DNA from: an uncultured Chlamydiae bacterium
GTDB taxonomy: Bacteria; Chlamydiota; Chlamydiia; Chlamydiales; Parachlamydiaceae
Reading direction: 5' to 3'
DNA length: 64,000 nt
Assembly: GCA_963754655.1 (NCBI GenBank)
Contig: CAVWGN010000001.1
Coordinates: 2,080,001 to 2,144,000, forward strand
Shown here: positions 15,931 through 61,171 of the stretch, one piece after another
Position numbering within the stretch: position 1 is the first letter of the stretch
Layout of the letters: every line of letters starts with the position of its first letter
The notes under the pieces: generated by a model
Databases searched by the model: none
Seen by the model: only the letters and a program-made list of their open reading frames with translations
What the model was told of the DNA's origin: nothing
Made by a program: the position numbers and the translations under genes

Positions 15931-16655
15931 GGGCATGTTTGCAAAATGCTAACCTCCTATTCCTGTAGTCTGAAGGACTACAAGATTCTAAAAAACATGA
16001 AATTGCGTTCGATGAAAATATGTTTGGAATAGATGATTCTCTTGTAGTCCTTCAGACTACATGACAAGGGCTAATCTAACCCAAGGCTAGGGTGTTCATT
16101 TTGTGCAAAAAATGAGCTTTATTTTTCACAATAATTGGCATAGTTAAATTGAAGGTCAGATGTTTATGCCGTCCTTTCAGGACTCGATGTCTTTGATAGA
16201 AACCCAGGCCTCCGCTTCGCTGCGACCTGGGCTGTAACATGACGGCCCTTCAGGCCTTAACAAGATGTTTAAGTCCCTCTTCTATAGTCCCTAAATCATC
16301 TTTTTGTTAAGGCCTGAAGGGCCGTCATGTTACAGCCCAGGTCGCAGCGAAGCGGAGGCCTGGGTTTCTATCAAAGACATCGAGTCCTGAAAGGACGGCA
16401 TAAACATCTGACCTTCAATTTAACTATGCCAATTATTGTGAAAAATAAAGCTCATTTTTTGCACAAAATGAACACCCTAACCCAGGGCGATGCCATGGGC
16501 TATTTTATTTGAAGCCTTTCAGGCGCTGAACATTGGATATTTTTGTTAACCACCCCTAAAAGGATTGTGGAGCATGTACTATTTAATAGGAACAGCCCTA
16601 CAATCGTTATAGAAGGAGGCCTTCCAAAAATGTCCAATGTTCAGAGCCTTTCAGA
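15931..16655. repeat. Composite fold-back cluster containing element A (16088-16479)
   Basis: 176-bp arms 16088-16263 and 16304-16479 around a 40-bp spacer, flanked by acccaaggc/acccagggc. Extra IRs at 15964-15985/16040-16061 and 16526-16545/16625-16644. C end module at 15931. Confidence 0.92.
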
Positions 16656-16884
16656 CTATTAAAAAAATCAAGTTATTTGGGAATGGTTCAAAAAGAGTAA
16701 ATTTTGGGTAACATGTTTATACCCAAAGCAAGGCTAAAGAGACAGTAATTCTTATATTTTTTTTAAATAAAAATTGTTAACAAAAATTAAATTAAATAAA
16801 TATTTTTATAAACTAAATTATATGTTATAATTTTAATTAATAAAAATTGTTAACAATAATTAAAACAAATGATTAAATTAAAGG

Positions 16885-17841
16885 ATGATTATGCAAATTA
16901 CTAACTTTCATTCACAAACAAGTCAAAGCACTTCAGAGGAATTCGAATTATTTTCAAATATAATACCTAATGATACATTGGAAATTATTTTTGATCAGAT
17001 TGTCAATCAACAAAGACAGCCTTTACGCGATATTTCTTCTATTTTACTTACCTGTAAAAAATGGGAAGAGGTTCTTAAAGCAAAGCCTTGCATCTCATTA
17101 TTGCAGACTTTTTTTAAAATGACACACAGTGATCGATTCACTATTACTCTTCCCCGGGAGTGTATTGTAATAGATGATCAAAAGAGGAATTTTACATCTA
17201 AAGAGCTTAATTTGATTGATGGAGCCGCCTATCAAGAAAGAACATTTGAAAAATTGTTGATGATGGATTCAGAATTATTTCAATCAAAGAGTTTATTTCT
17301 TTCTCTTTTGCATCGCTATCCATGGAACCCTGAAGTTTGCAAATACAGCGCCAATCAACACATCCAGATGATTGCTGAAAATCAATTGTCTATTTTAAAT
17401 TCTCTTATATCAGGAAGTGATGAAGAAAAATTAACCGTTATTAAAAATGACTTTTTCGAAAAATATTATTTTGGCGTGCAACATCAAAAATTAAAGAATG
17501 TACAAGGACCTATCATCTCTACTCTTAAAAAATTTCTCAACCTTAACGATAAAAAAATTTTTATTCAATTTGCTCACCGTTTTGGACCTACTGTTTTTGA
17601 TATAGATGAAAGCTTTAAAAAAGATCGAGAAATTGTCTTAGCTGCCGTTAAGCAAAATGGCTGGGCTCTTATGTATGTAGATGAAAGCTTTAAAAAAGAT
17701 CGAGAGATTGTCTTGGCTGCCGTTAAGCAAAACGGCTTTGCTATTATCTTTGCAGATGAAACCCTTAAAGCAGATAAAACCATTCAAGAGATTGTCTCGG
17801 CCTTCAGGGCAATACCGTGCCCCCTTCAGGGCAATAGCTAA
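16885..17841 (+). CDS. F-box-like protein with C-terminal DUF4116-type repeats
   Basis: IPNDTLEIIFDQI...ILLTCKKWEEV, plus two KKDREIVLAAVKQNG repeats. Confidence 0.75.
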   Translation: MIMQITNFHSQTSQSTSEEFELFSNIIPNDTLEIIFDQIVNQQRQPLRDISSILLTCKKWEEVLKAKPCISLLQTFFKMTHSDRFTITLPRECIVIDDQKRNFTSKELNLIDGAAYQERTFEKLLMMDSELFQSKSLFLSLLHRYPWNPEVCKYSANQHIQMIAENQLSILNSLISGSDEEKLTVIKNDFFEKYYFGVQHQKLKNVQGPIISTLKKFLNLNDKKIFIQFAHRFGPTVFDIDESFKKDREIVLAAVKQNGWALMYVDESFKKDREIVLAAVKQNGFAIIFADETLKADKTIQEIVSAFRAIPCPLQGNS

Positions 17842-18166
17842 GCTTATGATTTTTTACTCCTTTCGGTCTACTGGACTGAAAGGAGAATAGCTCTAAAATC
17901 AACTTCCTAAATTTCTACTGAGTCTTGATTTTTAGCGTTTCTCTTCATGAAGCCTGATTTCTTATCAATCCCTCTCTCTTTGTATGTCGTTTTTTCTTTA
18001 AATTTTTTTATTATTCCAGGATTTAAATAATTAACGGAAATTGCGCTGAAGAGAACTTTTCCTTGTAATTAAAAGCGATTTTCAGTATGATTATACCAGT
18101 CATTTATATTAATCAAGTTCCAACACCTAGCCACTCTTTCGGCTTATAACTTATGGGAGATTTCTG

Positions 18167-18436
18167 ATGTCTCTAGACAAAGGTACCAAAGAAGAAATTA
18201 CAAAAAAGTTTCAGCTTCATGAGAAAGATACCGGTTCAGCCGACGTTCAAATTGCCATTTTAACAGAGCGCATTACCGAGCTTACAGATCATTTGAAACG
18301 AGCACCTAAAGATCACGGTTCTCGCTTAGCTCTGCTCAAATTGGTTGGCCAACGCCGTCGTTTGCTCGATTATCTTAATTCAACAGATACTAAGCGTTAT
18401 CAAACGCTGATCAATAAACTAAAGCTCAGACGTTGA
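18167..18436 (+). CDS. rpsO: 30S ribosomal protein S15
   Basis: [37 protein letters not shown]. Confidence 0.98.
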
Positions 18437-18455
18437 TTCGACTTTAAAACAAACA

Positions 18456-18487
18456 AGAAAAGGGCAGCTAAGCTGCCCTTTTCTCTT
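18456..18487 (+). terminator. Intrinsic terminator after rpsO
   Basis: agaaaagggcagc-taa-gctgcccttttct. Confidence 0.75.
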
Positions 18488-18796
18488 AGACCAGAAGAAA
18501 TGATTCCAGACATGAAAGGATATAGAACTCAGAAAACTCCCTTTAAAAAAATTGAAGCGTGTTTTCTGATTTCTATTCGCCCCTTTCAAATTGGATAACT
18601 TTTCTCTTTTTTCCTTCAAAGTCAATGCATGGTCAGTCGCAGAGAAGGAAAAGAAAAGGCATAGCCTTATGCTATCTAAAGATTCTTCCACTCGCTTGCT
18701 TATAATCATTTAAAATTTAGGCATTCTTAAGCTAACAGCAGGGATCGAAGATAGAAATTATCAAGTCATATTTTTACTTTATGGAGAAATGAATTC

Positions 18797-20887
18797 ATGC
18801 AACGCGACATCCTTTCTGTCAACATCAATGGACAGGAAATTATTTTTGAAACAGGTAAAATTGCTCGTCAAGCTGGCGGAGCGGTTATCGTTCGCTGTGG
18901 GGAAACCATTGTGTTTTCGACGGCCTGCGCAGCCCCCAATCCAGATCCTAAAGCAGATTTTTTGCCTTTACGCATCGATTATCAGGAAAAATTTTCCTCT
19001 GCTGGCAAAACGGTCAGCGGTTTTATTAAAAGAGAAGGGCGCCCTGCTGAGCGCGAAATCCTTGTTTCACGTCTGATTGACCGTCCTCTCCGCCCTTTAT
19101 TTGAAAAAGGATACTATAACGAAGTTCAAGTCCTTTCTTATGTGTGGTCTTATGATGGCGTCCACTCGCCTGATCCTTTAGCTATTTGCAGCGCTTCGGC
19201 AGCTTTGGTCATTTCCGATATCCCTTTGAGCAAACCTGTGGGAGCCGTCAGAGTAGGCTATTTGAATGGACAATTTATCGTCAATCCCACAATCGAACAG
19301 CAACGCCAATCCAAGCTTGATTTGATGCTGGCTGGAACAGAAGATGCCGTTTTGATGATTGAAGGATTTTGCGATTTCTTGACAGAAGAGCAGGTGTTGG
19401 AGGCTATCGCCGTAGGCCATCAGAGTATTAAGATCATTTGTCAAGCTTTAATTCAATGGCAAGCACGCGTCGGAAAGCCTAAAAATCATGACAATTTGCG
19501 TCTTATTCCAAAGGAACTCTATCAAGAAGTGGAATCAATTGCCAATCCACTTTTAGAAAAAGCGCTGCGCATTAGCGAGAAGAAAAAGCGGGAATCGGAA
19601 TTGAGCACTGTCAATCAAACAGTCAATGAAGCCCTTTTTCCAAAGAATGCTGAACCGAAATATTCCGCACAAGATGTCAATTACGTCATTAAGGATGTTT
19701 CCTCTAAAATGATGCGTCGCATGATTTTAAATGAAAATCTACGCTCGGATGGACGTCAATCTACTGAGATTCGCCCTATTGACATTGAGCAAGGTATGCT
19801 TCCCCGCGCCCATGGAAGTTCTCTATTTACAAGAGGAGAGACGCAAGCCTTAGCAGTTTGTACACTGGGTGGTGAAGGAATGGCACAACGTTACGAAAAT
19901 TTAGAAGAAGAAGGCAGCCAACGTTTTTATCTTCAGTATTTTTTTCCTCCTTTTTCTGTTGGCGAAGTGGGTCGTATAGGTGCGCCAGGCAGAAGGGAAA
20001 TCGGACATGGAAAGTTAGCCGAGCGCGGACTACTGGCTTTACTTCCAACTAAAGAACAATTTCCTTATACGATTCGAGTCGAATCTAATATCACTGAATC
20101 CAATGGATCTTCCTCCATGGCAACTGTTTGCGGCGCCTGCTTAGCTCTCATGGATGCTGGAGTCCCCATCAAGCGTCCCATTGCGGGAATTGCCATGGGA
20201 CTCATTCTCGAAGACGAACGCTTCATGATTTTGTCAGACATTTTGGGAATTGAAGATGCTTTAGGCGATATGGACTTCAAAATAACTGGAGACCAAGAAG
20301 GCATTACCGCTTTCCAAATGGATATTAAAGTAGAGGGAATCACTTTTGAGATCATGCGCGCTGCCTTGCAACAAGCAAAAGCAGGACGCATTCACATTCT
20401 CAACAAGATGCTGGAAGTCAGTCCGACCTATAAAAAGCAAATGTCGCGTTATGCTCCACGCATTGAAACAATTCAAATTAAGCCCAGCAAAATTGCCACG
20501 GTCATTGGCCCAGGCGGCAAGCAAATTCGTGCCATTATTGAACAAACCGGTGTTCAAATTGACATTAACGATGATGGCTTAGTCAGTATTGCAGCTGCCG
20601 ACCTCGAAAGCATTGAAAAAGCGAAAGTCATCATTCAGGGTTTAACAGCTGAAGTTGAAATTGGCAGAATTTATGCAGGAAAAGCCACTTCCATTGCTCC
20701 TTTTGGAGTATTTGTCGAAATTCTTCCTGGTAAAGAAGGGCTTTGCCACATTTCTGAATTCGATACAAGCCGCATTGCCGATTTAGCTGATTTTGTCAAA
20801 GTAGGTGATAAATTGAGCGTGAAGGTCTTAGACATTAACGAAAGAGGACAAATCAAGTTGAGTCGTAAAGCGACTTTAACAGGATAA
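18797..20887 (+). CDS. pnp: Polyribonucleotide nucleotidyltransferase
   Basis: RNase PH domains (RREIGHG, SNGSSSMA, GDMDFK) plus KH and S1 domains. Confidence 0.98.
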   Translation: MQRDILSVNINGQEIIFETGKIARQAGGAVIVRCGETIVFSTACAAPNPDPKADFLPLRIDYQEKFSSAGKTVSGFIKREGRPAEREILVSRLIDRPLRPLFEKGYYNEVQVLSYVWSYDGVHSPDPLAICSASAALVISDIPLSKPVGAVRVGYLNGQFIVNPTIEQQRQSKLDLMLAGTEDAVLMIEGFCDFLTEEQVLEAIAVGHQSIKIICQALIQWQARVGKPKNHDNLRLIPKELYQEVESIANPLLEKALRISEKKKRESELSTVNQTVNEALFPKNAEPKYSAQDVNYVIKDVSSKMMRRMILNENLRSDGRQSTEIRPIDIEQGMLPRAHGSSLFTRGETQALAVCTLGGEGMAQRYENLEEEGSQRFYLQYFFPPFSVGEVGRIGAPGRREIGHGKLAERGLLALLPTKEQFPYTIRVESNITESNGSSSMATVCGACLALMDAGVPIKRPIAGIAMGLILEDERFMILSDILGIEDALGDMDFKITGDQEGITAFQMDIKVEGITFEIMRAALQQAKAGRIHILNKMLEVSPTYKKQMSRYAPRIETIQIKPSKIATVIGPGGKQIRAIIEQTGVQIDINDDGLVSIAAADLESIEKAKVIIQGLTAEVEIGRIYAGKATSIAPFGVFVEILPGKEGLCHISEFDTSRIADLADFVKVGDKLSVKVLDINERGQIKLSRKATLTG

Positions 20888-20897
20888 CAAGAAAAAC

Positions 20898-20935
20898 AAA
20901 CTCAGCCGTATTGCATTCAATAGGGCTGAGTTTTT
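20898..20935. terminator. Terminator hairpin between pnp and the convergent ORF
   Basis: aaactcagcc...ggctgagttttt. Confidence 0.7.
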
Positions 20936-20946
20936 GCCTCTTTTTT

Positions 20947-21522
20947 TTATCTTTCTGCAAACCTTTTCAATGGATTGGATTGGACATGTTTAGCTTTGCT
21001 ATGAATCTGTTCCATGACTCTTTCTACTTCTCGTTCAATACCCCAATATTGCTCCGCCACCATTTCAACAGGCGCTCTGCTAGGCAATTTAGCAGGCAAT
21101 CTTCTTAATAAGTATTGTTCAGTCTGATTAATCAAACCTAATTGGTGTTGAAGGCCAGGCATAGCGCGAGCAGAAGCAGCGGCGCGCTTAATACGCTCCT
21201 TGGCCATTTTCCGAATAATTTGACTACTGAAAATATTCAACATCGTTGTCTCATATAGCAGCCAAACCACTAATTGATAATCATTTTTGATAGCCGGCTG
21301 GTCATGAATCACACTCGCCATTTTATTGATTTGTTTATTCACATCGATATTCATTTCATTCGCTTTTTGAATCCATTGGCGAAATGTGAGCGTTAGATCC
21401 TGTTGTTTCCACACTAAATCAGCAAAAGCTTCTTTTTGCAGATTTTGTTTAGAATGAGAAACATCTTGAGAGCTTGAAATCACTGGAATAGCACTAGATC
21501 CGAGGGAGGATTGAACAAACAT
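20947..21522 (-). CDS. Hypothetical helical protein with Ser-rich N-terminus
   Basis: ATG at 21522 preceded by GGAGG. No recognisable domain. Confidence 0.65.
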   Translation of the reverse strand: MFVQSSLGSSAIPVISSSQDVSHSKQNLQKEAFADLVWKQQDLTLTFRQWIQKANEMNIDVNKQINKMASVIHDQPAIKNDYQLVVWLLYETTMLNIFSSQIIRKMAKERIKRAAASARAMPGLQHQLGLINQTEQYLLRRLPAKLPSRAPVEMVAEQYWGIEREVERVMEQIHSKAKHVQSNPLKRFAER

Positions 21523-21731
21523 AAAGCCTCCTAAGTAGGGATGAAAAAGCAACCTCAACTTTACAAAAATCGGTTCTTAAACAAAAAAACCTTTTATAAA
21601 GTTGCGTTGCATTAATCTACACATAGCTCAAAGTTTCTTTTATGAAAATAAGCTCAGCAAAAAAATAAACAATTAATTTCTTGACTTCTTTAAAAAAAAA
21701 GCAAATTTGATTTTGATGAATAAAGACAATC

Positions 21732-21757
21732 AAAAAAAATGGCTCTTAGGAGCCATT
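21732..21757 (-). terminator. Terminator after ftsH
   Basis: atggctc-ctaa-gagccat followed by a T-run on the minus strand. Confidence 0.6.
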
Positions 21758-21801
21758 CATTTTTCTATTCATCGCACCTGCAGTGCGATGAATAGGTGAC
21801 G

Positions 21802-24567: not shown

Positions 24568-24896
24568 ATATTCCTAAAATTCGATTTAACAAATTTCTCT
24601 ATCCATTAAATATAAGACCATAGAGAAAGAAAGTCTCTTGTACTCTGTCAAATTAGTTTTTTGCCTATGAGACTGAATACTAGCGGAGAAAATAATCTCA
24701 AAGTTAGTCCATTAAAATAGTGGAATAGGTTCAATATTGATTGATTGATTCTATCACACAGAATATTCATTTTCAACTATTACTCCGCTTCATTCTTAAA
24801 TTTGAGCTTAAAATGATTGATAAGGTATAAAATCTTTAATTTAGCAAACTTTACATTCTTAGTAAAATATATTTTGATTTTTTTTAAATTTTTCCT

Positions 24897-26228: not shown

Positions 26229-26230
26229 GA

Positions 26231-29098: not shown

Positions 29099-29419
29099 AG
29101 GGTGATTAAATCTGGGAGTTTATATTTTTTAGCAGATCGATACGAAATGGTAGGGCGGCGGTAGCCGCTTTCAGTGGGAAGCCCCGTATGAAGCGAGCTT
29201 GCGAGTGGAATGCGGGATGAGCATCAATAAAATATAAACCGCGGAAGCGGTGTGAGTGATCTTACGCTGCTTCCGCAGCTCAATGCTATCTTGCCTACAC
29301 CCCGCATTCCACTCGCAAGCTCGCTTCATACGGGGCTTCCCACTGAAAGCGGCTACCGCCGCCCTACCATTTCGTATCGATCTGCTAAAAATATAAACTC
29401 CCAGAGTTAATTACACCCG
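29099..29419. mobile_element. Non-autonomous fold-back element B, copy 1, with 8-bp flanking direct repeat cgccattt
   Basis: Arms 29111-29216 and 29301-29405 with an inner hairpin. cgccattt at 29091-29098 and 29420-29427. Second copy at 44419. Confidence 0.85.
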
Positions 29420-29524: not shown

Positions 29525-30574
29525 ATGAGCAAAATGTTCTTCATGGGCAAAATGTTATTGTCATTGCATATTTTGATGCTGCCTATACTTCTAACAGCCG
29601 TTCCAGAAATGAATGGTAGTGAAGGCAAAGTTCATCCGGAGCTTTTAACAGAAAATGTGAAAATTAACAATAGAGACCCATTGTCTGATGCTTTGATAAC
29701 TGGCTGTAAAGCTCCAAAACTGTGTCGTCGCGGGGCAACAGGAGCCACAGGAGCTACAGGTGCAACAGGAGCTACAGGATCAACAGGATCAACAGGAGCT
29801 ACAGGATCAACAGGATCAACAGGAGCAACAGGTGCAACAGGATCAACAGGGCCAACAGGTAGTTGCAGTGGTTGCAATAGTGGATGCCTTGTAGGGGAAG
29901 TAACGACCTTTTTTAGCCCCTCTGGAGCTACTGGCTGCATTGGAACGACTGAAACTTTCGGAGTGTCCCCCTCCGTAGCAGTAACAGCCTATAACAAACC
30001 CAGTCTTAGTCAGCCTTCTGGTGGACTTTTGAATTTATATAACAAGAATGACATGTTTGGAGAACAAGGAGTTGGCATTTGTGGTAGTGGTCCTGACAAT
30101 GAGATTAGCGCATTTAATTTCATCCAAATCGATCTCTCAAACCTTCAGACAATGACACCTCCTCCCAGTATGATTGATCTCACGATCCAAAGTATTCAAA
30201 ATAATGAGGGATTTGCTGTCTATAGTACCAATACAGCAGGCCAGTTGGGTACAACGCTAGTTGCCCAAGGTGCGAATCCACCTGGCGCTGTCGTTCAAAC
30301 GGTTCCCATCTCATTTGTTAATGCATCAGGTAATATCGTGATTCCGAATTACCTCAGCGTTACTGCGAATGCGGGAGACGTTTTATTGAGCAGCGTATCA
30401 ATCCCTAAGTGCGATACAATCAATGCACCTCTTATACTTGTTGTCCCCAGTAATATCGGCATGACTTCTAATATTGCTGGTAGCTTTATCGGACAAATTG
30501 CCTTCTTCCAAAATCCTGGCCTAATAGGGTTATGGGTTTGGAATGGATCGCAATGGCTGCAGGCGACTCCTTAA
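29525..30574 (+). CDS. Secreted collagen-like (G-X-T repeat) protein
   Basis: Signal-peptide-like N-terminus. 14 G(A/S/P)T triplets at 29732-29857, flanked by Cys clusters. Beta-rich C-terminal domain. Confidence 0.85.
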
Positions 30575-30654: not shown

Positions 30655-31322
30655 CTAGTCCAAGATGTCAATTCAATTGATATCTTGGACTAGTACTCAA
30701 CCACATTAGTTTTGCGTATTGGGATTGCTTCAAAGCCCGAGGTTGGGATGAGATGATTCTCTTGTAGTCCTTCAGACTACATGACGAGGGCTAATCTAAC
30801 CCAGAGCTAGGGTGTTCATTTTGTGCAAAAAATGAGCTTTATTTTTCACAATAATTGGCATAGTTGAATTGAAGGTCGCATGTTTATGCCGTCCTTTCAG
30901 GACTCGATGTCTTTTTGATAGAACCCAGGCCTCCGCTTCGCTGCGACCTGGGCTGTAACATGACGGCCCTTCAGGCCTTAACAAAAAGATGATTTAGGGA
31001 GATTATAGAAGAGGGACTTAAACATCTCTTGTTAAGGCCTGAAGGGCCGTCATGTTACAGCCCAGGTCGCAGCGAAGCGGAGGCCTGGGTTCTATCAAAA
31101 AGACATCGAGTCCTGAAAAGACGGCATAAACATGCGACCTTCAATTCAACTATGCCAATTATTGTGAAAAATAAAGCTCATTTTTTGCACAAAATGAACA
31201 CCCTAGCTCTGGGTTAGATTAGCCCTCGTCATGTAGTCTGAAGGACTACAAGAGAATCATCTCATCCCAACCTCGGGCTTTAGCGGTTCCAATGGGCTAA
31301 AACTAATATGGTTGAGTACTAG
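30655..31322. repeat. Nested ~630-bp palindrome containing element A
   Basis: 253-bp arms 30732-30984 and 31029-31281 (one mismatch seen), 44-bp spacer. Outer imperfect arms ctagtactcaacca.../...tggttgagtactag (30690-31322). Adjacent IR at 30655-30693. Confidence 0.95.
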
Positions 31323-34410: not shown

Positions 34411-36930
34411 ATGGATGCTTTTGATTTAAGACAATGGGATGGATTTGCCGGTGCCGGTGGATCCTTAATAGAACCTGCAATCATTGATCAAATTGTCATT
34501 GATTCTCGACGCATTGATTCTCCTCACGCTGTTTTTGTTGCATTGAAAGGGGCAAAAGAAGATGGACATGCGTATGTGGAACAGGCAGCTCAAGCTGGAG
34601 CCAAATTTGCACTAGTCTCGCAAGAATGGCAATCTCCTTCAAGATTGCCTGAATTAACTTTATTGCGTGTCCCAGATCCTCTTCAGTCCTTTCAAGCAAT
34701 TGTCAAAACATATCGCCTACAGCTTCCAACTAAAATTATTGGTGTTACAGGATCATTCGGCAAGACAATGGTCAAAGATTTACTTTATGCATTATTGGGA
34801 ACAGAGAAGCGTATTGCCGCTTCGCCCGAAAGCTTTAATAGCCAAATAGGAGTCGCCCTTAGCTTGCTAACTTTACACCGACAACATGAGATTGCCATCA
34901 TTGAAGCAGCCATTTCACATCGAAATGAAATGGATGCTCTTGTCGATATGATTCAACCGACTTATACTTTATTGACGCCTATAGGCAAGAAGCATCTTGC
35001 TACACTACAAGATCTTTCTATACTTTCTGAAGAAATCATGAAACTCATCAAGTCAACTCCTTCGCAAGGTTGGGCACTGTTATCGCGTGATATAGAGGTA
35101 GAAAAGCATTTAACTCAACTGAATTGTCCCTTTTTCTTTTGGAATGACACCTACCAACAATTACCGCATGCAGCCGCTTTATCCACAGCTCCATTGTCTC
35201 AATATCAAATTTCTTTTCCCGATTCTACCACGTATCAAGATGAAATGAACATAGGACAAGCCTATTTTATCAATTTGGTCAACATGGCAACTAAGGCTGC
35301 TTGGCTCATGGGCATTTCTTCTTCTCATATTCTTTCAGTGCTCCAAGCGTATCAACCAGAGCCTATGCGCACTGAAATTTGGAAATCGCCAGTTGGAACA
35401 ATTTTCATTAATGATACTTATTGTTCAGATCCTCAATCAGTCGACCATACTTTAAAACTTTTTGAATTTGCCTCAAATGAAAACCGGAAGATTTTCGTTT
35501 TTGGCGGCATGCGCGGCCAGCTTTTATCATCGACTACAGATTACAAAAGAATCGGCAAAGCCCTTGCAAAATCACATATCAATCATTTATTTTTAGTCGG
35601 ACAAAAGCCTTTTAAACCACTCATTGAAGAAATTCAACATTTATCTCCTGAAACTGAAATTTTAGCTTTTGATGATTATGAAGAAAATTTTGCTTACTTA
35701 CAACAGCATTTAAAAGCACAAGATCTCGTCATTTTTAAAGGCGAAAACAAATTACCTTTAGACAAGCTAACGGAAATATTTAATGACAGCTTATCCAATA
35801 ATCAATGTATGATCAATTTAGCTGCCATTCAAACAAACTTGGCTTTGATTCGCAATTGTCTTCCAAAAGACAGTCGAATGATGATCATGGTGAAAGCGTT
35901 GGCTTATGGAACAGATGATGTACGGGTATCGAAATTTTTGGCAAAGAACGGAATCGATATTCTTGGAGTCTCCTATGTAGATGAAGGAATCGCTCTGAAA
36001 AGAGCCGGAGTCCATCAGGCTATTTTTTCAATTAATGTTGCTCCTTATGAAGTGGCTAAAGTCGTTAAATGGGAATTGGAGGTCGGTGTTAGCAATCACA
36101 CCTTAATTAAGGCCCTAGCGCAAGAAGCGAGCCATCATCAGAAAGTCATTAAAGTCCATTTGCATATTAATACAGGCATGGGAAGATTTGGATGTCGTCC
36201 AGAAGAAGCTATTGAATTAGCACGCCAAATTCAATCTCTTCCTTCTATTGAGTTAGAGGGAGTCATGACTCATTTTGCCTGTTCAGAAGATCCTCAAGAA
36301 GATGCTTTTACATTGCATCAAATTGAGCTGTTTGATCGAATAATAAAAGAAATGGAGCAAGAAGGGATTTCTGCTAAATGGAAACATGCCGCCAATTCAA
36401 GTGGTTCATTGCGTTTTCACTTACCTCAATATAATATGGTTCGTTTGGGACTTGCCGTATATGGTCTTTATGGATCAGAAGCGGTAAGAAAAACGCTCGA
36501 TCTTAAATTAGCTATTTCTTTAACCTCACGCATTGTGGGCATCAATATTTGTAAGCAAGGGGAAACCATTAGTTACGGGCGCAAATACCAAGTTAAACGA
36601 GAAACTCAAAAAATTGCTGTCCTTCCTATTGGTTATTTTGACGGACTTCACCGCCATTACAGTGGAAAAGCACACGTTCTCATTCGAGGTCAGAAAGCTC
36701 CTATGGTAGGCAATATCTGTATGGATAATATGATGGTGGATATCACAGATATTCCGAATGTTGAAGTAGGAGATAAGGTTCTCATTTTTGGAGAAGATGA
36801 ATATGGTTATTATCTTTCACCTGAAGAATTAGCCATGAGTGGAGATTCCATCGTTCATGAACTCATGACTTGCTTAGGTCCTCGCATTCCACGCATTTTT
36901 ATCTATGAAGAAGGAAAGCAAATTCGTTAA
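34411..36930 (+). CDS. alr: Bifunctional MurF-like ligase / alanine racemase fusion
   Basis: N-terminal DSR..., DGHAY, GVTGSFGKTMVK, SFNSQIG (MurF). C-terminal VKALAYG, NTGMGRFG, ISYG, VGNICMD (Alr). Confidence 0.92.
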   Translation: MDAFDLRQWDGFAGAGGSLIEPAIIDQIVIDSRRIDSPHAVFVALKGAKEDGHAYVEQAAQAGAKFALVSQEWQSPSRLPELTLLRVPDPLQSFQAIVKTYRLQLPTKIIGVTGSFGKTMVKDLLYALLGTEKRIAASPESFNSQIGVALSLLTLHRQHEIAIIEAAISHRNEMDALVDMIQPTYTLLTPIGKKHLATLQDLSILSEEIMKLIKSTPSQGWALLSRDIEVEKHLTQLNCPFFFWNDTYQQLPHAAALSTAPLSQYQISFPDSTTYQDEMNIGQAYFINLVNMATKAAWLMGISSSHILSVLQAYQPEPMRTEIWKSPVGTIFINDTYCSDPQSVDHTLKLFEFASNENRKIFVFGGMRGQLLSSTTDYKRIGKALAKSHINHLFLVGQKPFKPLIEEIQHLSPETEILAFDDYEENFAYLQQHLKAQDLVIFKGENKLPLDKLTEIFNDSLSNNQCMINLAAIQTNLALIRNCLPKDSRMMIMVKALAYGTDDVRVSKFLAKNGIDILGVSYVDEGIALKRAGVHQAIFSINVAPYEVAKVVKWELEVGVSNHTLIKALAQEASHHQKVIKVHLHINTGMGRFGCRPEEAIELARQIQSLPSIELEGVMTHFACSEDPQEDAFTLHQIELFDRIIKEMEQEGISAKWKHAANSSGSLRFHLPQYNMVRLGLAVYGLYGSEAVRKTLDLKLAISLTSRIVGINICKQGETISYGRKYQVKRETQKIAVLPIGYFDGLHRHYSGKAHVLIRGQKAPMVGNICMDNMMVDITDIPNVEVGDKVLIFGEDEYGYYLSPEELAMSGDSIVHELMTCLGPRIPRIFIYEEGKQIR

Positions 36931-40958: not shown

Positions 40959-41506
40959 CAGGGTGTTTCGACTAAAAAAAAATTGACACTTGCAGCCCTT
41001 TAGGCTGCTGCATGACACAACTCATTCAACCCCAGGGCGTTGCTCCATACGCATCAAGCTAAGAGAAAAGCGTAGGCTACGCGACGCCTTCAGTCGCCGC
41101 GCCGCTTCGCTCTGGGCTCTTAGGTAAGAGGGGGGGTGAGGACCACCGTTCGGTCGCCCTCCGGGCTCGGTCACGGTGGGCTATTACCAGTCGTCCTACG
41201 GACTCTAGCGGCAATATAGAAGCCATTGAATGCTATTTAAGGCGTTCTGCTAATGCCGCTAGAGTCTGTAGAACGACTGGTAATAGCCCACCGTGACCGA
41301 GCCCGGAGGGCGACCGAACGGTGGTCCTCACCCCCCCCCTCTTACCTAAGAGCCCAGAGCGAAGCGGCGCGGCGACTGAAGGCGTCGCGTAGCCTACGCT
41401 CTTCTCTTAGCTTAATGCGTATGGATCAACGCCCTGGGGTTGAGTAGGTTGTGTCATGCAGCCTGAAGGACCACAAGTGTCAAATTTTTTTAGTCAAAAC
41501 ACTTTG
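40959..41506. mobile_element. GC-rich fold-back element D (~550 bp)
   Basis: Long imperfect IR cagggtgtttcgactaaaa...ctagcggca / tgccgctag...ttttagtcaaaacactttg. Flanks atttttaaag (40949-40958) and atttttaagg (41507-41516). Confidence 0.88.
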
Positions 41507-44418: not shown

Positions 44419-44741
44419 GGTGTGTGATTAAATCTGGGAGTTTATATTTGTAAGCAGATCCATACGAAATGGTAGAGCGGCGGTAGCCGCTTTCAGTGGG
44501 AAGCCCCGTATGAAGCGAGCTTGCGAGTGGAATGCGGGGTGTAGGCAAGATAGCATTGAGCTGCGGAAGCAGCGTAAGATCACTCACACCGCTTCCGCGG
44601 TTTATATTTTATTGATGCCCACCCCGCATTCCGCTCGCAAGCTCGCTTCATACGGGGCTTCCCACTGAAAGCGGCTACCGCCGCTCTACCCTTTCGTATC
44701 GATCTGCTAAAAATATAAACGCCCAGATTTAATCACACCCG
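44419..44741. mobile_element. Fold-back element B, copy 2 (centre inverted relative to copy 1), with 8-bp direct repeat tgttaagg
   Basis: Same arms as 29099-29419. tgttaagg at 44411-44418 and 44742-44749. Confidence 0.88.
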
Positions 44742-48754: not shown

Positions 48755-48769
48755 AAAAACAGAAAAAAC

Positions 48770-50215: not shown

Positions 50216-50218
50216 GAT

Positions 50219-52277: not shown

Positions 52278-52282
52278 GCATG

Positions 52283-53638: not shown

Positions 53639-53944
53639 GTCGTTGCTCCTATCATGTCTATCATCACATTGTCATTACACTTTAAAGTGTATCGATCTTT
53701 CGGTTTATGCCCCTTCTGGCTTTAAGAAGGTTTAATTAAAATGGAAAATTCAAAATGGGGAGAAAAGATGATGCACCCTAAGGTGCGGAACGGGAAGACT
53801 GACCGGAAGAAAGCAAGAAATCTTTAAAAATCATAGCTTTACAATTAATTACTTTTAATAAATCTATGATATCGCATCAATCCTAATGTTTCAATGAAAA
53901 TTGACTTTCAATTATGATTTTTATCCATCTGGTCGAGTTAACCA

Positions 53945-54946: not shown

Positions 54947-54965
54947 TACAGATCAGTATTATTTT

Positions 54966-56648
54966 TTATAAAGGATAACTGTGTCTTTTCCGTGTGACTT
55001 CAACTACAGTTCTATTAAATGCTTTACTAATTTCTTCATCTTCACAAACAACAATGATGCCCATTTTCTTTAAAATATTTTCCTCTTCCAAATTTTTTGC
55101 ATGCGCAATGATTGTAATGTCTGGATGAACCTCATGTGCATATCGAATAATATCAAGAGTTGTTGCAAGATCAGAGCCAGTCAGGATTAAAAGACTAGCT
55201 GAGGTAATTTGAGCCATTTCTAGCATATTGGGAAAAGCAGCCTCGCCATAAACCGCTTCGCGCTTTTGTTCAATCAATTTTGCAACTGTATCCACATTGC
55301 GATCTATAATAACAGAACGGTACCCTAATTTTTCTAAAGTATTCACAACGCTTTGTCCAATGATTTCAAAGCCAACAATTAAAGCTTTAAGTTCGCGTTG
55401 AGACACTTGTTTTAAGTGTTGCTGTGTGAATAAAAGGTTTGATTCTAATCCCTCCAATTGAGGCTTTAAATAGTTCAGAATTTTAAAAAACAAAGGATTC
55501 ACTGCAATGGAAATCAATGCACACGCTACAATGATATCATAAGCCTCATCAGGGAAAATATGAAATTTAGCAGCTTCTTCTGCTAAGATAAAAGAAAACT
55601 CTCCAATTTGAGCAAGAGCTAAGGCCACACTTAAGGCAACTGAAACAGGATAACGCATTAAGACTACAATTAAAAAAGCTGTTAAAGGTTTGACTACAAG
55701 AATAATGATCAAAATGCCTAAGAAAAGAGGAAAATGTTCAATAATGGCCATTGGATTAAAAAGCATGCCAACGGAAAGAAAAAAAATGACAACAAAAGCA
55801 TCTTTCATAGGAGAGGCATAAGCAGAGGCTTGATGGCGCACATCAGTTTGCCCGATCACCATTCCTGCGATGAAAGCGCCTAAAGCAATGGAAGTACCAA
55901 ATACAACAGCTGATCCTGTAGCTATTAAAAAAGTCAGGGCCAAAACAGTTAAAGTAAATAGCTCAGGAGAACGCGTGCGTGCTATTTTAAAAAGCGCATA
56001 AGAGACAAATTTATGCCCCAAAGTAAACATAATGGCAGCCAGCACAATAAACTTAACCACAACAAGAGCCATAGAAGTTAAAATTTCTTGCATCGAAATA
56101 GTGGCTCCAGTCAAAAGAGCAACAATAGTAGGAAGCAAAATAAGCACTGCAACAGTTAGAATATCTTCGACTATCAACCATCCTACCGCAATATATCCTT
56201 GCAAAGTCTCTAAAAGATTGTGATCAGCAAGAACTCGGACCAATACGACAGTACTGGCAACACCTATTGCCAAACCAATCAAAACACCTGCTTCCCATCC
56301 ACCCCACATGTAATGAACAAATAAGGTTGCAGCAGCTGTGGCAACTAACGTTTGTATAATTGCTCCTGGAATGGCGATATTTTTAACATTGACTAAATCT
56401 TGCCATTTAAAATGAAGACCGACCCCAAACATCATTAACATGACGCCTACTTCTGCCAGTTGCTCTGCAAGCTGAAGATTCGCAACGTATCCCGGAAAGT
56501 AGGGCCCAATAACATAACCCGCCAACAAGTACCCCAAAATAGGGGAGAGTTTTATCTGCTGGGTCAAATATCCTAAAAGACTAGCTAAAGTAAAGCCTAT
56601 CGTCAAAATAATAACGATATTGAGATTGAGATTAATCGACTCTTCCAT
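54966..56648 (-). CDS. CPA2 cation:proton antiporter with TrkA-N domain (YbaL/RosB-like)
   Basis: GYLLAGYVIGP, LMFGVGLHF and LAQIGEFSFILA motifs, C-terminal RCK domain. Confidence 0.92.
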   Translation of the reverse strand: MEESINLNLNIVIILTIGFTLASLLGYLTQQIKLSPILGYLLAGYVIGPYFPGYVANLQLAEQLAEVGVMLMMFGVGLHFKWQDLVNVKNIAIPGAIIQTLVATAAATLFVHYMWGGWEAGVLIGLAIGVASTVVLVRVLADHNLLETLQGYIAVGWLIVEDILTVAVLILLPTIVALLTGATISMQEILTSMALVVVKFIVLAAIMFTLGHKFVSYALFKIARTRSPELFTLTVLALTFLIATGSAVVFGTSIALGAFIAGMVIGQTDVRHQASAYASPMKDAFVVIFFLSVGMLFNPMAIIEHFPLFLGILIIILVVKPLTAFLIVVLMRYPVSVALSVALALAQIGEFSFILAEEAAKFHIFPDEAYDIIVACALISIAVNPLFFKILNYLKPQLEGLESNLLFTQQHLKQVSQRELKALIVGFEIIGQSVVNTLEKLGYRSVIIDRNVDTVAKLIEQKREAVYGEAAFPNMLEMAQITSASLLILTGSDLATTLDIIRYAHEVHPDITIIAHAKNLEEENILKKMGIIVVCEDEEISKAFNRTVVEVTRKRHSYPL

Positions 56649-56966
56649 AGAATATCCTTTGAGCCTCAAATAAGTGATTGGATAGCGATGACAAAATTTA
56701 ATTTTAATATAGGCAATATTCTTTTATCTGGAAATAGACTAAAATCCAATCTTAATCAGGTTTTTAAATAGAGGAATCTTGGAATAACAGTCTGTTTTTG
56801 ATTCCTAACAATTTACGAAAATATCGTTTTTTATTAAAATTACCCTTTCTAAAATATTCCCTAACATCCTAAAGAAATGATGAAAATACGATTGAAACCT
56901 TTTTTATTAGAACAAATATTAACTGTAATTTTTTATTTATCATCCATCCAATTAGAGGCAAATACA

Positions 56967-58004
56967 ATGTTATGGAAAGGCTTTGCTAGCGATAACTATG
57001 CGGGTGTTCATCCCACAATTTTAAAAGCTATTCAAGAAGCTAATCAAGGTCATAGCAGAGCCTATGGAGATGATACATATACCAAAGAAGCTGTCGCTTT
57101 ATTTAAACGCTATTTTGGCGATGACATTGATGTTTATTTTGTTTGCAATGGAACAGCAGCCAACGTCCTTGGTTTGACTACATTGCTTAAATCCTACCAA
57201 GCTATCATTTGCGCAGAATCAGCCCATATCAACGTGGACGAGTGCGGTGCTCCTGAAAAATACATCGGCTGTAAACTGTTGACGGTCGCTACAAAGGATG
57301 GAAAATTGACCATCGAAAATATTAAAAGTTTTTTAAATGCTTATGGAGATCAACATAAAGTTCAACCGAAAATCATCTCAATTGCCCAAAGCACGGAATT
57401 AGCCACTATTTATACACCTCAAGAGATCAAAAAAATCAGTGATTTTGCCCATGCCAATGGGCTTTTAGTGCATATGGATGGAGCCCGTTTGAGTAATGCT
57501 GTAGCCAGTTTAAATGTCTCTTTATCTGCAGTGACAAAAGATGTAGGAATTGATGTATTGAGCTTTGGTGGGACTAAAGATGGAATGATGTTCGGTGATG
57601 CGGTGATTTTCTTTAATAAAGATTTTTCAAAAGATTTTCCTTATATTCGCAAACAAGGGATGCAGCTGATTTCTAAGATGCGCTTTATTTCAGCGCAGTT
57701 TATCGCTCTTTTAACCGATAATCTTTGGCTTAAAAATGCGCAACATGCAAATGAAATGGCACAGTTTCTGGCAGAAGAGATTAAAAAAATCCCCGAAATC
57801 ACCATCAGCAAAAATGTTCAAGCTAATGCTGTATTTGCTTATGTCGATCCCACAATTATTTCCAAATTACAAGAAAAATACTTTTTTTATGTTTGGGATG
57901 AAGCGACTTCAGAAGTACGTTGGATGACCTCTTGGGATACAACTAAGGAGGATATTCAAAATTTTGTAACCTTCATCAGGCAAACATTAGCAAATCGGGT
58001 TTAA
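56967..58004 (+). CDS. ltaE: Low-specificity L-threonine aldolase
   Basis: FASDNY, GTAAN, HMDGARL and SFGGTK motifs. Confidence 0.9.
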   Translation: MLWKGFASDNYAGVHPTILKAIQEANQGHSRAYGDDTYTKEAVALFKRYFGDDIDVYFVCNGTAANVLGLTTLLKSYQAIICAESAHINVDECGAPEKYIGCKLLTVATKDGKLTIENIKSFLNAYGDQHKVQPKIISIAQSTELATIYTPQEIKKISDFAHANGLLVHMDGARLSNAVASLNVSLSAVTKDVGIDVLSFGGTKDGMMFGDAVIFFNKDFSKDFPYIRKQGMQLISKMRFISAQFIALLTDNLWLKNAQHANEMAQFLAEEIKKIPEITISKNVQANAVFAYVDPTIISKLQEKYFFYVWDEATSEVRWMTSWDTTKEDIQNFVTFIRQTLANRV

Positions 58005-58039
58005 TCTTGCTTAAATGATTGGAGCGGATCAACTCTTAT

Positions 58040-58087
58040 AAATGATAAAGAACACTTCCCTTGCGGGAAAGTGTCCAGGGATGTGCC
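58040..58087 (+). repeat. 48-bp direct repeat of the recombinase-tail/tRNA-Leu 3' junction (att-like)
   Basis: 44/48 identical to 63144-63191. Confidence 0.75.
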
Positions 58088-58429
58088 ATCCCAGAATAGC
58101 TTTAGCACTTTAAAGACTTTGATTAGAGCTTAATCAATTCGAATATGTTGGCCTAGTACTCAACCACATTAGTTTTGTGTATTTAGACTGCTTCAAAGCC
58201 CCGGGGTTGAATTGGCGTAAGTGGGTCAATATTAGCAATATTGACCCACTTACGTCAATTCAACCCCGGGGTTAGGGTGTTCATTTTGTGCAAAAAATGA
58301 GCTTTATTTTTCACAATAATTGGCATAGTTAAATTGAAAGTCGCATGTTTATGCCGTCCTTTCAGGACTCGATGTCTTTTTGATAGAACCCAGGCCTCCG
58401 CTTCGCTGCGACCTGGGCTGTAACATGAC

Positions 58430-58838
58430 GGCCCTTCAGGCCTTAACAAAAAGATGATTTAGGGACTATAGAAGAGGGACTTAAACATCTCTTGTTAAGC
58501 CTGAAGGGCCGGCCCTTTAAGCCTTAACAAAAGGACTATTTATGGACTATAGAAGAGGGACTTAAATCTCTTTTGTTAAGGCCTGAAGGGCCGGCCCTTT
58601 AAGCCTTAACAAAAGGACTATTTATGGACTATAGAAGAGGGACTTAAATCTCTTTTGTTAAGGCCTGAAGGGCCGGCCCTTTAAGCCTTAACAAAAGGAC
58701 TATTTATGGACTATAGAAGAGGGACTTAAACATCTCTTGTTAAGGCCTGAAGGGCCGGCCCTTTAAGCCTTAACAAAAGGACTATTTATGGACTATAGAA
58801 GAGGGACTTAAATCTCTTTTGTTAAGGCCTGAAGGGCC
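58430..58838. repeat. Five tandem ~82-bp hairpin units (amplified centre of element A)
   Basis: ggactatagaag recurs at 58463, 58544, 58626, 58708 and 58790. Confidence 0.95.
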
Positions 58839-58948
58839 GTCATGTGGTCCGATCTAGGGACATGGGTAACACTTTATCTAAGGACATAGGTGACATTATC
58901 CAAGGACATGGGTAACACTCCGGTTGATTAACAACTGGAGGTAAACCC

Positions 58949-60103
58949 ATGCCTTGGAGGATTATGTCGACTACAGAGGAACGTAAAAAATTCATAGATC
59001 AAGCTTTACGCACTGATCGCCGCCATGTAGCTTTTGCAGATTTATGTGAAAGTTACAATATTAGTACTAAAACAGGATATAAATGGTTAAATAGATTTAA
59101 AAAAAACGGAGAAAAGGGCCTTGAAGACCTTTCTCGGGCTCCCTTTTCCCACCCTAATCAAATTTCAAAAGAAGTTGAATTAGCAACTGTCAGTATTCGC
59201 AAGCAATTTCCTAACTGGGGCCCTAAAAAAATACGAGCCGAGCTTGTAAATCACTATCGTGAATTATTAGTGCCTTCTGAAGCCAGTATCGGTAATATTT
59301 TAAAGAGAAATAATTTGTCCAATCAACGAATCCACAGGAGACATGTTACTCAAACAGCTCCATTGGGCGATTGCAACGCTTCAAATGATACCTGGATGTA
59401 TGATTTTAAAGGGTGGTTTCGAACAGGTGATAATCAAATATGCGAACCTTTAACAGTTACAGATGGCTTTTCTCGCTATCTTCTTCATTGTCAACATATG
59501 CCAAGGAAACGGGGATGTGATGTTTGGAAGGAATTAGAACAACTTTTTTATGTGTACGGATTACCAAAGAAATTGCGAAGTGATAATGGTCCCCCTTTTG
59601 CTTCTTTGGCTGTAGGTCGATTATCTAGCATTGCAATTAAATTAATCAAAATTGGCGTTACTCCAGAATGGATCGATCCTGGATGTCCTGAACAAAACGG
59701 TAGGCATGAGAGGTTTCATTTAACTCTAAAAAATGAGACAGCAAATCCCCCAGCCTTGACGTTATCTCTTCAACAGGAAAAATTTCTTCAATTCAAAAAA
59801 TATTACAATAACAGACGTTACCACGAAGCATTAGGCCAGCAAACACCAGCTTCCGTGTATAAACCTTCTCGACCTATTTGGGATGGTAAATTCAAACCCA
59901 TTGAATACCCCAGTTACTATGAAGTCAGAAAAGTTTGCGCAGGAGGATTGATTTCTTGGAAGGGCACCTATTTCTTCATTAGTGAAATGCTACGAGGGGA
60001 ATATGTAGGACTCAGAGAAATTGAAGTAGGGATAATGGGGATTTATTTCGGCCCAATTCTCCTAGGAAAAATTAACATGGCCAGAGGGTTTAAGAGATTA
60101 TGA
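58949..60103 (+). CDS. IS481-family DDE transposase
   Basis: MPW start, HTH (ISTKTGYKWLNRF), WMYDFKG, RSDNGPPF, QNGRHERFH and YNNRRYHEAL motifs. Confidence 0.95.
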   Translation: MPWRIMSTTEERKKFIDQALRTDRRHVAFADLCESYNISTKTGYKWLNRFKKNGEKGLEDLSRAPFSHPNQISKEVELATVSIRKQFPNWGPKKIRAELVNHYRELLVPSEASIGNILKRNNLSNQRIHRRHVTQTAPLGDCNASNDTWMYDFKGWFRTGDNQICEPLTVTDGFSRYLLHCQHMPRKRGCDVWKELEQLFYVYGLPKKLRSDNGPPFASLAVGRLSSIAIKLIKIGVTPEWIDPGCPEQNGRHERFHLTLKNETANPPALTLSLQQEKFLQFKKYYNNRRYHEALGQQTPASVYKPSRPIWDGKFKPIEYPSYYEVRKVCAGGLISWKGTYFFISEMLRGEYVGLREIEVGIMGIYFGPILLGKINMARGFKRL

Positions 60104-60547
60104 AGGAAAACACAAATTTTCTACCAAAAAGTTTAAACTTACAGATGAGCAAATTAGGATATACGTATGGTTGAAAGAGCAAGAAATAAATACAGATGAT
60201 GGAACTCTTTGCTATTGGGTAAAAACATACCCTTCAAAAAGGCTAAAAGAAGTTGTTGAGTTTGCAAATGTAAGAATGACTTCAGGGCAGAAAATCCTGA
60301 ATACTGGGGGATTTATTCGTAATCTCCTTCAAAATGGAAGTACAGTTGTTAACGATACATGTCAATTCAATCGAGAATATGCATTAGAATTGCTATGACA
60401 AAAAAGTGGAGTGATTTGAAAATTTACGAAAAATATGTTAAGGACAGTGTAACAGGAGATGACCTCCCTTTAACTATAGTAATAAGTGAGTTTAAGCTGG
60501 CTCTTGAAAGGCTGTACCAAAAAAGTTGTCTTTATAGATGGGCCTAA
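60102..60547 (+). pseudogene. Start-less, frameshifted passenger gene fragment inside the IS
   Basis: Frame EGKHKFSTKKFKLTDEQIRIYVWLKEQEINTDDGTLCYW...ALEL continues in another frame as AMTKKWSDLK...RWA*. Confidence 0.55.
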
Positions 60548-61171
60548 AAAGGACATTGCCTTATTATATAAGTGTTTTATTTTAATTAAAACCGTTACCC
60601 ATGTGCTTAGATAGAGTTACCTATGTCCTTGGATAATGTGTTACCTATGTGCTTGATCGGACAATGTTACAGCCCAGGTCGCAGCGAAGCGGAGGCCTGG
60701 GTTCTATCAAAAAGACATCGAGTCCTGAAAGGACGGCATAAACATGCGACCTTCTATTCAACTATGCCAATTATTGTGAAAAATAAAGCTCATTTTTTGC
60801 ACAAAATGAACACCCTAGATCAGGGCCGGGACTTAACAAAGAACTGTTTTTGGGCTTGATATTCGTCGAGTCAATTTAACAATACCCCGCCTGTAACAGG
60901 CTTTAGAGGCATATTTCCCGAAAATGACGCGAAAAATATCAAGTCCAAAACAGTTCTTTGTCAAGTCCCGGACCAAGGCAACACCCTGGGTATAAGTGTG
61001 TTGTGTTATGCAGCCTGAAGGGCTGCATGTGTCAAATATTTTAGTAAAACACCCGTTATGAGTTAGAAAAAATATATAGCGGAGTGGTTATAATTGCGTG
61101 TATTATCATTTATATCACTTTTTGGTAATGTTTTTCAGACACGCCCTAGCATAGTACGAATCTTTTATCTC

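Follow-up and report, generated by a model that had tools for sequence, protein, structure and literature searches.

When changes in a hairpin stem are paired, this is usually regarded as proof that an RNA structure is under selection. In E. coli, template switching makes quasipalindromes more perfect, as described in PMC7202029. In the large palindromes of sex chromosomes, gene conversion acts from arm to arm, and in E. coli without SbcCD and RecA a hairpin can mirror the flank of a palindrome, an event described as palindrome-centred inverted duplication (PMC3315005). Among small mobile repeats, the MITE-like bcr1 of Bacillus carries paired stem changes that are read in PMC3184786 as conservation of RNA structure. 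The palindromic repeats of the Parachlamydiaceae genome considered here resemble each of these systems in part, and their arms share variants far above chance.

The window, a stretch of 64,000 nucleotides from this genome, holds six palindrome copies, all located between ORFs. The first is a long-form palindrome of family A (16080..16487), whose arms (16080-16263 and 16304-16487) enclose an asymmetric loop and which, as single-stranded DNA, is predicted to form a single extended hairpin (-237.6 kcal/mol, z -44). To its left lies a small hairpin repeat (15956..16069), a module with 76 genome hits that is also found on both sides of the A copy at 30 kb. Family B is represented by copy 1 (29102..29419; arms 29126-29219 and 29298-29391, 78-nt loop) and copy 2 (44424..44741), the latter with arms that are 95% complementary and several differences in one arm. 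Between these lie a composite palindrome (30732..31281), in which a family A copy of the consensus haplotype (30795-31218) is enclosed by the two arms (30732-30794 and 31219-31281) of a different multi-copy repeat with outer ends TGGGATGAGA, and a palindrome of an older family, C (41007..41462, arms 95-96% complementary). The last is an A copy split by an insertion sequence, directly preceded by a palindromic repeat with 35-nt arms bounded by CCCCGGGG (58199..58271). Its left arm (58273..58426) is followed by an expanded central array (58427..58846) of 82-bp units, each combining the loop with the inner extremities of the arms, then by the 1817-bp insertion sequence (58847..60663, + strand, transposase ORF 58949-60103), whose insertion site is ACATG within the right arm (60664..60817).

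These palindromes are MITE-like mobile repeats whose insertion produces target duplications of 8-10 bp. The families examined are short, non-coding and present in many copies, and their terminal inverted repeats comprise the entire arms (94-253 nt, 95-100% complementary). Family A yields 368 arm hits and 115 paired copies genome-wide, with spacer classes of 42, 124, 206 and 288. In the short form, duplications of 8-10 bp were found at five of six copies of an asymmetric subfamily and at one symmetric copy. Among 58 long-form copies, just 3 have a matching paralogous empty site, and these fit a 9-bp duplication of GCCCWGGGY. An IS at G000:C1:1781566-1783428 has the same target and duplication length as family A; its ends read TGGGATGAGAAAAC, versus TAGGGTGTTCATTT for A. 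A regex search for "empty" palindromic host sites joined at CTAG placed none of its 15 hits inside a repeat module.

The sequence-only reading of this window quoted short strings as copy-specific mutations mirrored in both arms, and each string is present where it was placed. The 16-kb A copy has ggtcaga/tctgacc, tctttgatagaaacc and tagttaaatt in both arms, and the 30-kb copy has ggtcgca, tctttttgatagaacc and tagttgaatt in both. The B copies differ from each other (ggtagggc vs ggtagagc), and the arms of the split copy read tagttaaattgaaag and tagttgaatagaagg, with three differences. Only tctttgatagaaacc, however, is private among the quoted strings, its 21-mers occurring once per strand in the whole genome; the others are mostly shared alleles or consensus. 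The states of the 30-kb copy are those of the family A majority. The G>A change in tagttAaatt is found in 29 of 98 A copies (both arms in 18, one arm in 11), the CAG allele of ggtcaga in 4 copies, and ggtagAgc in 18 of 31 B copies (both arms in 8, one arm in 10), which is barely above independence.

Mirroring of states between arms is real, and across the genome permutations put it far beyond chance in each of the three families. In family A, 372 non-majority states are present in both arms versus 252 in one (94 copies, 15,861 compared site pairs). The distance between own partners lies below that between re-paired arms throughout (2.08% vs 3.99% in A, 3.48% vs 4.95% in B, 4.22% vs 12.48% in C), and none of 2000 re-pairing permutations reached the observed distance in any of the three families. 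Trees agree with the prediction that the arms of one copy cluster together: own-arm sister pairs among cherries number 19/48 in A, 6/17 in B and 18/25 in C, far above chance (0.25-0.37). In family C, 18 of 34 copies have their own arms as supported sisters, and in some the arms are 0.5% apart with the nearest other arm 6.7% away. Left arms do not group with left arms, as same-side and opposite-side distances between different copies are 3.55% and 3.56%.

Variants that are private to one copy and mirrored in its two arms exist in all three families. They comprise 20 columns (~14 events) in A, 11 in B and 23 in C, versus 71, 57 and 78 private one-arm variants, a 3-5 fold excess of the latter that indicates slow correction. 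The 21-mers are unique to the copy in 18 of the 20 family A columns, and chance coincidences in A are expected at about 0.03 (estimated by us from 71 one-arm variants over 2 x 15,861 sites). In A, B and C alike, the partner arm carries the reverse complement of a change private to that locus, as is characteristic of template switching. The 16-kb copy (16080..16487), which carries the private mirrored tctttgatagaaacc, has in both arms a two-base change and a pair of indels separated by 8 nt, a single example that other routes predict as well.

With moderate confidence, we read these data as occasional templated correction from arm to arm, in place, on top of inherited and recombined alleles. 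Most mirrored states would be subfamily alleles, passed on by faithful copying of both arms at mobilisation and reshuffled by recombination between copies. A minority of changes would arise in one copy and then be written onto the partner arm in situ, perhaps by intramolecular template switching on a replication hairpin, by mismatch correction in the hairpin or by RecA-mediated arm-to-arm conversion; in the opposite outcome, the change would be erased. We infer the in-place site of copying and its enzymatic route from the sequences. The earlier proposal of arm homogenisation by hairpin-templated repair or conversion keeps its core, as some process does mirror changes and leaves private mirrored variants in A, B and C, but loses its two extensions, synthesis of one arm during mobilisation and outward growth. 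MutS (971.7 bits) and RecA (532.9 bits) are both encoded in the genome. Counting against this reading, 68/98 A and 25/31 B copies have a closer match in some other copy's arm than in the partner. Furthermore, the alleles in 188 of the 252 one-arm differences of A also occur elsewhere, indicating exchange between copies.

The dependence on spacer length that a hairpin route leads one to expect is seen only marginally, which also weighs against in-place correction. In family A, arm divergence is 1.48% (n=72), 1.86% (n=27) and 2.67% (n=16) with increasing spacer (Spearman 0.18, p 0.056). The predicted rise with spacer length reduces to a weak trend in A and no trend in B or C; the IS splits are recent. 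The split copy had been singled out as an exception that reveals hairpin dependence. Judging by its identities, it is a hybrid of two common haplotypes: its left arm is identical over 154/154 positions to arms at G000:C1:925514, 2078018 and 2229982, and its right arm over 154/154 to arms at G000:C1:1409543, 1806733, 3015950 and others. Its arm differences are therefore pre-existing rather than new mutations. The element that splits it encodes a DDE integrase-core transposase with an N-terminal helix-turn-helix (Pfam rve, rve_3, HTH_32 and HTH_28), has terminal inverted repeats of 57 nt (86%) and a short target duplication, and, judging by this domain set, is presumably of the IS481 family. Its five copies in the genome are 100% identical and all occupy the same arm site with ACATG duplicated (5/5), indicating that the split is very recent.

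The strongest competitor, though still quite unlikely, ties mirroring to mobilisation itself: each copy would be rebuilt from one arm, or through a repaired folded single strand, and would be born perfect and then decay. Consistent with this idea, the consensus of family A forms a palindrome without mismatches, many arms have an exact match among the arms of other copies (median nearest-other distance 0), and seven two-carrier variants occupy both arms in one copy and one arm in another. Such rebuilding is hard to reconcile with the asymmetric short subfamily, which keeps a 9-nt arm difference and three point differences on the same loop side at six loci, five of them with distinct 8-10 bp target duplications of their own. 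Mobilisation thus copies both arms as they stand, and the suggestion that one arm is synthesised from the other at that step is not supported. A second asymmetric haplotype pair, common to two copies, speaks against rebuilding as well, as do the private mirrored variants, which lack a one-arm "parent" anywhere in the genome; moreover, the target duplications point to a cut-or-copy route of the DDE type and not to a single-strand one.

Somewhat less probable is the view that no mirroring occurs at present, and that subfamily inheritance, whole-element replacement and recombination suffice, with the "private" mirrored variants as relics of lost sources. A private mirrored variant could indeed derive from a lost source copy, alleles do recur across many backgrounds, known alleles account for 75% of the one-arm differences, and the split copy is a clean hybrid. 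Even so, every subfamily allele had to become mirrored once, and the 18 of 34 family C copies with supported own-arm sisters would require equally many lost sources. Relatives with the same core module show the outcome without mirroring, as their arms are about 81-87% alike. The partner arm is closest in 4/8 copies in G016, 1/8 in G017 and 0/9 in G015, indicating that mirroring is not a general property of the core module; a two-cluster cut gave no clean left/right split in these relatives (0/8, 1/8 and 3/9 copies split). A search of three same-genus genomes turned up none of families A, B and C, and a 39-nt exact arm pattern had 0 hits in metagenome contigs. Two soil-metagenome runs (0.07-0.08 of words) on 15700-16900 yielded the repeat only, as short contigs with consensus alleles, the unique flanks being uncovered. 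A search for segmental duplications as time-stamped copy pairs returned no clean pair, the flanks being mostly IS copies.

Selection for pairing, in which independent compensatory mutations are fixed in a functional long hairpin of RNA or DNA, is doubtful. Compensatory changes in bcr1 have been read in this manner (PMC3184786), and the inner 55 nt of each arm of the 30-kb A copy resemble the Acido-Lenti-1 RNA (Rfam RF01687; 30924-30978 on the + strand and 31035-31089 on the - strand, 36.4 bits each, E 4.8e-6), below the gathering score of 37, with no match at the gathering threshold anywhere in the window. There is also a slight excess of transitions that give G-U on one strand (64 vs 42, p 0.04), from counts that are non-independent. 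However, one mismatch in a 176-bp stem of -237.6 kcal/mol is nearly free, so that per-site selection would be negligible, and mirrored indels and two-base changes would arise only if both arms were hit independently in exactly the same way. Of 213 tolerated arm-versus-arm mismatches, transversions (58) and indels (49) make up half, which is not an RNA-pairing pattern. An assembly or polishing artefact, in which reads from one arm are placed on the other and one-arm variants written onto both, is very improbable: near-identical arms 42 nt apart could mislead short reads, but 252 one-arm differences remain in the assembly, mid-arm ones included, the two-contig genome despite hundreds of repeats suggests reads that span the 420-bp element, and the signal peaks in family C, where divergence between copies is too great for reads of one to be placed on another.

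Mirrored flanks would form a further layer of the in-place correction reading, arising by nesting inside other palindromic repeats with a shared GCCCWGGGC target. The left flank of the A copy at 30.7 kb is indeed inverted on the right, with arms of 253 nt that run 63 nt past family A's own end. The proposed outward growth of palindromes is not supported: all 22 mirrored flanks (22/22) are other multi-copy repeats and none (0/22) is unique DNA, in keeping with nesting, and nothing indicates that palindromes have extended into unique DNA. SbcCD was not detected in the genome, SbcD not being found and SbcC giving only 22-bit fragments. Long palindromic repeats might, in the lack of SbcCD, undergo frequent hairpin-templated re-copying that would also carry inserted elements across arms, leading to symmetric nested growth, an idea we regard as unlikely, if less so than the rival explanations above. 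A candidate trace of such a transfer is the A copy at G000:C1:1783431, where mirrored 145-bp elements differ by 1 nt and the next best of ~130 copies by 4-5 nt. In addition, the 9-mer target copy is mirrored in 5/5 strictly scorable copies with symmetric flanks and direct in 5/5 scorable direct cases with asymmetric flanks, a division that we count in support of symmetric nested growth. Comparing flanks with their own partners and with other copies (n=18) gave 8 in which the own partner was strictly best, 3 ties and 7 in which another was better, these counts being approximate.

It appears that in these approximately 250 natural palindromes pairing is kept mainly by inheritance and arm-to-arm DNA copying, and covariation-based RNA calls in repeat-rich genomes can consequently mislead. 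The genome also lends itself to estimating, from natural sequences, how fast quasipalindromes are corrected in a host without detectable SbcCD.

Among known systems, the quasipalindrome template-switch mutations described for E. coli lacZ reporters (PMC7202029, PMC8794818) are similar in that one arm templates the other and an imperfect inverted repeat is perfected, in that nearby changes can move together, and in acting at the DNA level with no need for selection. Unlike those reporters, the case made here rests on natural palindromes with arms of 100-250 nt and not on observed events, one-arm changes outnumber mirrored ones, and dependence on arm proximity is marginal (A, p 0.056). As in the palindromes of sex chromosomes, own arms are closer than related copies and no side-specific lineage exists, but those palindromes have kilobase to megabase arms versus ~0.2 kb here, depend on eukaryotic recombination and are not mobile multi-copy elements. 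The bcr1 repeat, as described in PMC3184786, is likewise small and non-autonomous, with target duplications and paired stem changes; in this genome the stems are much longer, and both the spectrum of mismatches and the indels favour DNA-level copying over RNA conservation. The E. coli of PMC3315005 shares with this genome the lack of SbcCD, undetected here, but RecA is present here, no mirrored flank lies in unique DNA, and the mirrored 145-bp pair is the sole candidate for such an event. The re-copying of arms in this genome most likely reflects a copying error that is already known, rather than a new system or mechanism.

Six long palindromes, all intergenic, lie in the window and represent three families of MITE-like repeats: family A at 16080-16487, 30795-31218 and 58273-60817, family B at 29102-29419 and 44424-44741, and a single family C palindrome at 41007-41462. 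In the whole genome (a 3.12-Mb contig, C1, of which the window covers 2080001-2144000, and a 35-kb contig), a family A arm used as query gives 368 matches, 185 and 183 per strand, and in 115 copies each arm reaches 90 nt or more. The commonest spacer (93 of 145 adjacent arm pairs) is an asymmetric 42-nt loop, by which each family A copy can be assigned an orientation. Further spacer classes of 124, 206 and 288 nt are due to an expandable 82-bp central unit; at 58427-58846 the centre grows by 82-bp steps, the unit comprising the loop and the fused innermost arm ends. As one DNA strand, the 16-kb copy is predicted to fold into a single hairpin (-237.6 kcal/mol, z -44), and the inner 55 nt of each family A arm score 36.4 bits against Rfam RF01687, narrowly below the gathering score of 37. 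Two 38-nt mini-palindromes (C1:1366219-1366258 and about 1334325-1334376) hold family A outer ends only (TTAGGGTGCTCATTTTTTGC...) with the usual CCCCGGGG flanking, and resemble what a deletion would leave of a full copy.

As for the neighbouring genes, the 16-kb copy sits between those for an F-box protein (15280-15903) and a DUF4116-repeat protein (16885-17841), and a plus-strand ORF (29525-30574) with a B copy on one side and the 30-kb A copy on the other carries collagen-like 9-bp repeats, 12 units of them at 29714-29875. The window also contains an 839-aa ORF (34411-36930, plus strand) in which Mur ligase domains (Pfam Mur_ligase_M/C) are joined to a complete alanine racemase (Ala_racemase_N/C). 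Two tandem 459-aa ORFs on the minus strand (596-1975 and 2426-3805) share 300-nt stretches of 95% identity, have repeated upstream regions and represent a local gene duplication.

The sequence-only reading held that the two arms of a copy are homogenised, except in the copy split by an IS. Mirroring, the presence of a change in both arms of one copy, clearly exceeds chance and is a real pattern, though too much was read into it. In family A, 372 non-majority states occur in both arms and 252 in one (94 copies, 15,861 site pairs). The mean distance of an arm from its own partner, compared with random re-pairing, is 2.08% vs 3.99% in family A, 3.48% vs 4.95% in family B and 4.22% vs 12.48% in family C, the observed value being reached in 0 of 2000 permutations each time. 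As had been anticipated, arms of one copy cluster together: in maximum-likelihood trees of all arms, own-arm cherries number 19 of 48 in family A (98 copies), 6 of 17 in family B (31 copies) and 18 of 25 in family C (34 copies), where chance predicts 0.25-0.37. The opposing pattern, left arms grouping with left arms across copies, is absent in family A, in which arms of different copies differ by 3.55% on the same side and 3.56% on opposite sides. Two results speak against a strong reading: an arm elsewhere is nearer than the partner for 68 of 98 family A and 25 of 31 family B copies, and family B has 126 one-arm vs 41 two-arm states.

Every string on which that reading rested is present where it was reported, but the changes are mostly shared alleles and not mutations of a single copy. 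The 30-kb copy has the majority state at all the quoted sites. The A allele of tagttAaatt occurs in 29 of the 98 analysed family A copies (both arms in 18, one in 11), the CAG form of ggtcaga in four, and the A allele of ggtagAgc in 18 of 31 family B copies (both arms in 8, one in 10), near the expectation for independence. Only tctttgatagaaacc is private among the quoted strings, its 21-mers being found once per strand genome-wide. When the count is restricted to variants confined to one copy, mirrored and one-arm variants number 20 (columns, about 14 events) vs 71 in family A, 11 vs 57 in family B and 23 vs 78 in family C. For 18 of the 20 family A columns the 21-mers are unique to their own copy, and 8 of the roughly 14 events fall within a 20-nt stretch around a T-run. 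Chance coincidences estimated from the one-arm rate come to about 0.03 for family A; private mirrored variants thus lie far above chance, indicating that a mirroring process is needed. Inheritance alone merely shifts the origin of the mirroring to the source copy.

The IS-split copy at 58-60 kb, put forward as the telling exception, proves to be a hybrid. Arms identical to its left arm (154/154) occur at three further loci, and at two of these both arms are of that type; its right arm has identical counterparts (154/154) at many others. The three differences between its arms are therefore those between two common haplotypes, and no private change was found in either arm on comparison with arms across the genome. 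The splitting element, an 1817-bp IS481-type element (Pfam rve, rve_3, HTH_32) at 58847-60663, has five 100% identical copies in the genome (the others at C1:679530, 1042822, 2368887 and 2539759), indicating that the split is too recent for arm divergence. The insertion point, ACATG within a family A arm, is common to all five, which suggests that the element targets the palindrome. The hybrid could readily have arisen by recombination, involving either identical IS copies or A copies. The expected rise of arm divergence with spacer length is seen as a marginal trend in family A (pooled difference 1.48% at 47 nt or less, n=72; 1.86%, n=27; 2.67% above 400 nt, n=16; Spearman 0.18, p 0.056), but not among the genome-wide copies of families B and C.

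Outward growth of the palindromes had been raised as a possibility. Palindromic flanks of at least 20 nt adjoin 22 of 115 family A copies (at least 40 nt in 18; longest ungapped, 118 nt), and all 22 are multi-copy repeats with 9-89 genome matches each; none is unique DNA. Long family A copies end in TA-GGGTG...CACCC-TA at a site (G/A)CCCWGGG(C/T), and for three of them a paralogous empty site exists that fits a duplication of 9 bp. An IS adjoining an A copy ends in TGGGATGAGAAAAC and has the same target, and the mirrored flank of the 30-kb copy terminates in the same TGGGATGAGA. Nesting of elements with one common palindromic target explains the mirrored flanks, and nothing in the analysis pointed to palindromes extending into unique DNA. 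Two observations leave room for a bolder reading. Around the A copy at C1:1783431, two 145-bp TIR elements with asymmetric interiors are mirrored (C1:1781421-1781565 and 1783835-1783977). Only 1 nt separates them, against 4-5 nt for the next closest of some 130 copies, and the pair could reflect mirrored copying or a local hop. Among A copies that could be scored strictly, 5 have the central W of the 9-mer in direct form, all with asymmetric flanks, and 7 have it inverted, with symmetric flanks in 5 and asymmetric in 2.

Synthesis of one arm from the other at mobilisation had also been suggested. A subfamily of the short form of family A, whose 5' arm (in loop orientation) differs from the 3' arm by a 9-nt difference and three point differences, argues against this: it occupies six loci, with the same side affected each time, and five of these lie in unique DNA between direct target duplications (8-10 bp) of their own. 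Two family A copies share a second asymmetric haplotype pair. Arm asymmetry is thus kept at several loci, indicating that mobilisation carries over both arms unchanged. One copy has the 9-nt form in both arms, together with a private mirrored change of its own.

Inverted pairs of the family A arm core are also present in four other genera. The partner arm is nearest in 4 of 8 copies in one relative (G016), 1 of 8 in a second (G017) and 0 of 9 in a third (G015), with partner-arm identity of about 81-87% in the latter two; no clean left/right split was found among the relatives' copies. Mirroring is thus tied to the near-perfect palindromes of the studied genome and not to the module itself. In a more distant genome (G027), the core modules run minus then plus, 14 nt apart, and in the other genomes plus then minus. 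Two soil-metagenome runs of one study, X1 and X2, yield short family A contigs with the usual neighbour repeats, so a carrier of the repeat family is present there; over positions 15700-16900, the unique flanks of the 16-kb copy are absent from these contigs.

Occasional arm-to-arm copying in place is the simplest account: one arm would now and then be re-copied from the other where the copy sits, and we infer both the location and the enzymatic route. The 213 arm-vs-arm mismatches include 58 transversions and 49 indels, not the spectrum that RNA-level tolerance would suggest. Genes for MutS and RecA are present. SbcCD is described as attacking long palindromes in E. coli (PMC3315005); in the studied genome, rated 96.7% complete, SbcD was not matched and the SbcC matches were limited to 22-bit fragments, whereas the search controls matched in 13 of 14 and 14 of 14 genomes. 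Quasipalindromes of E. coli are reported to grow more perfect via intramolecular template switching (PMC7202029), an established mechanism that has also been proposed to maintain stem pairing (PMC8794818). What is left once the over-reading is removed is arm-to-arm correction of this known kind, here in a large and clear natural example.
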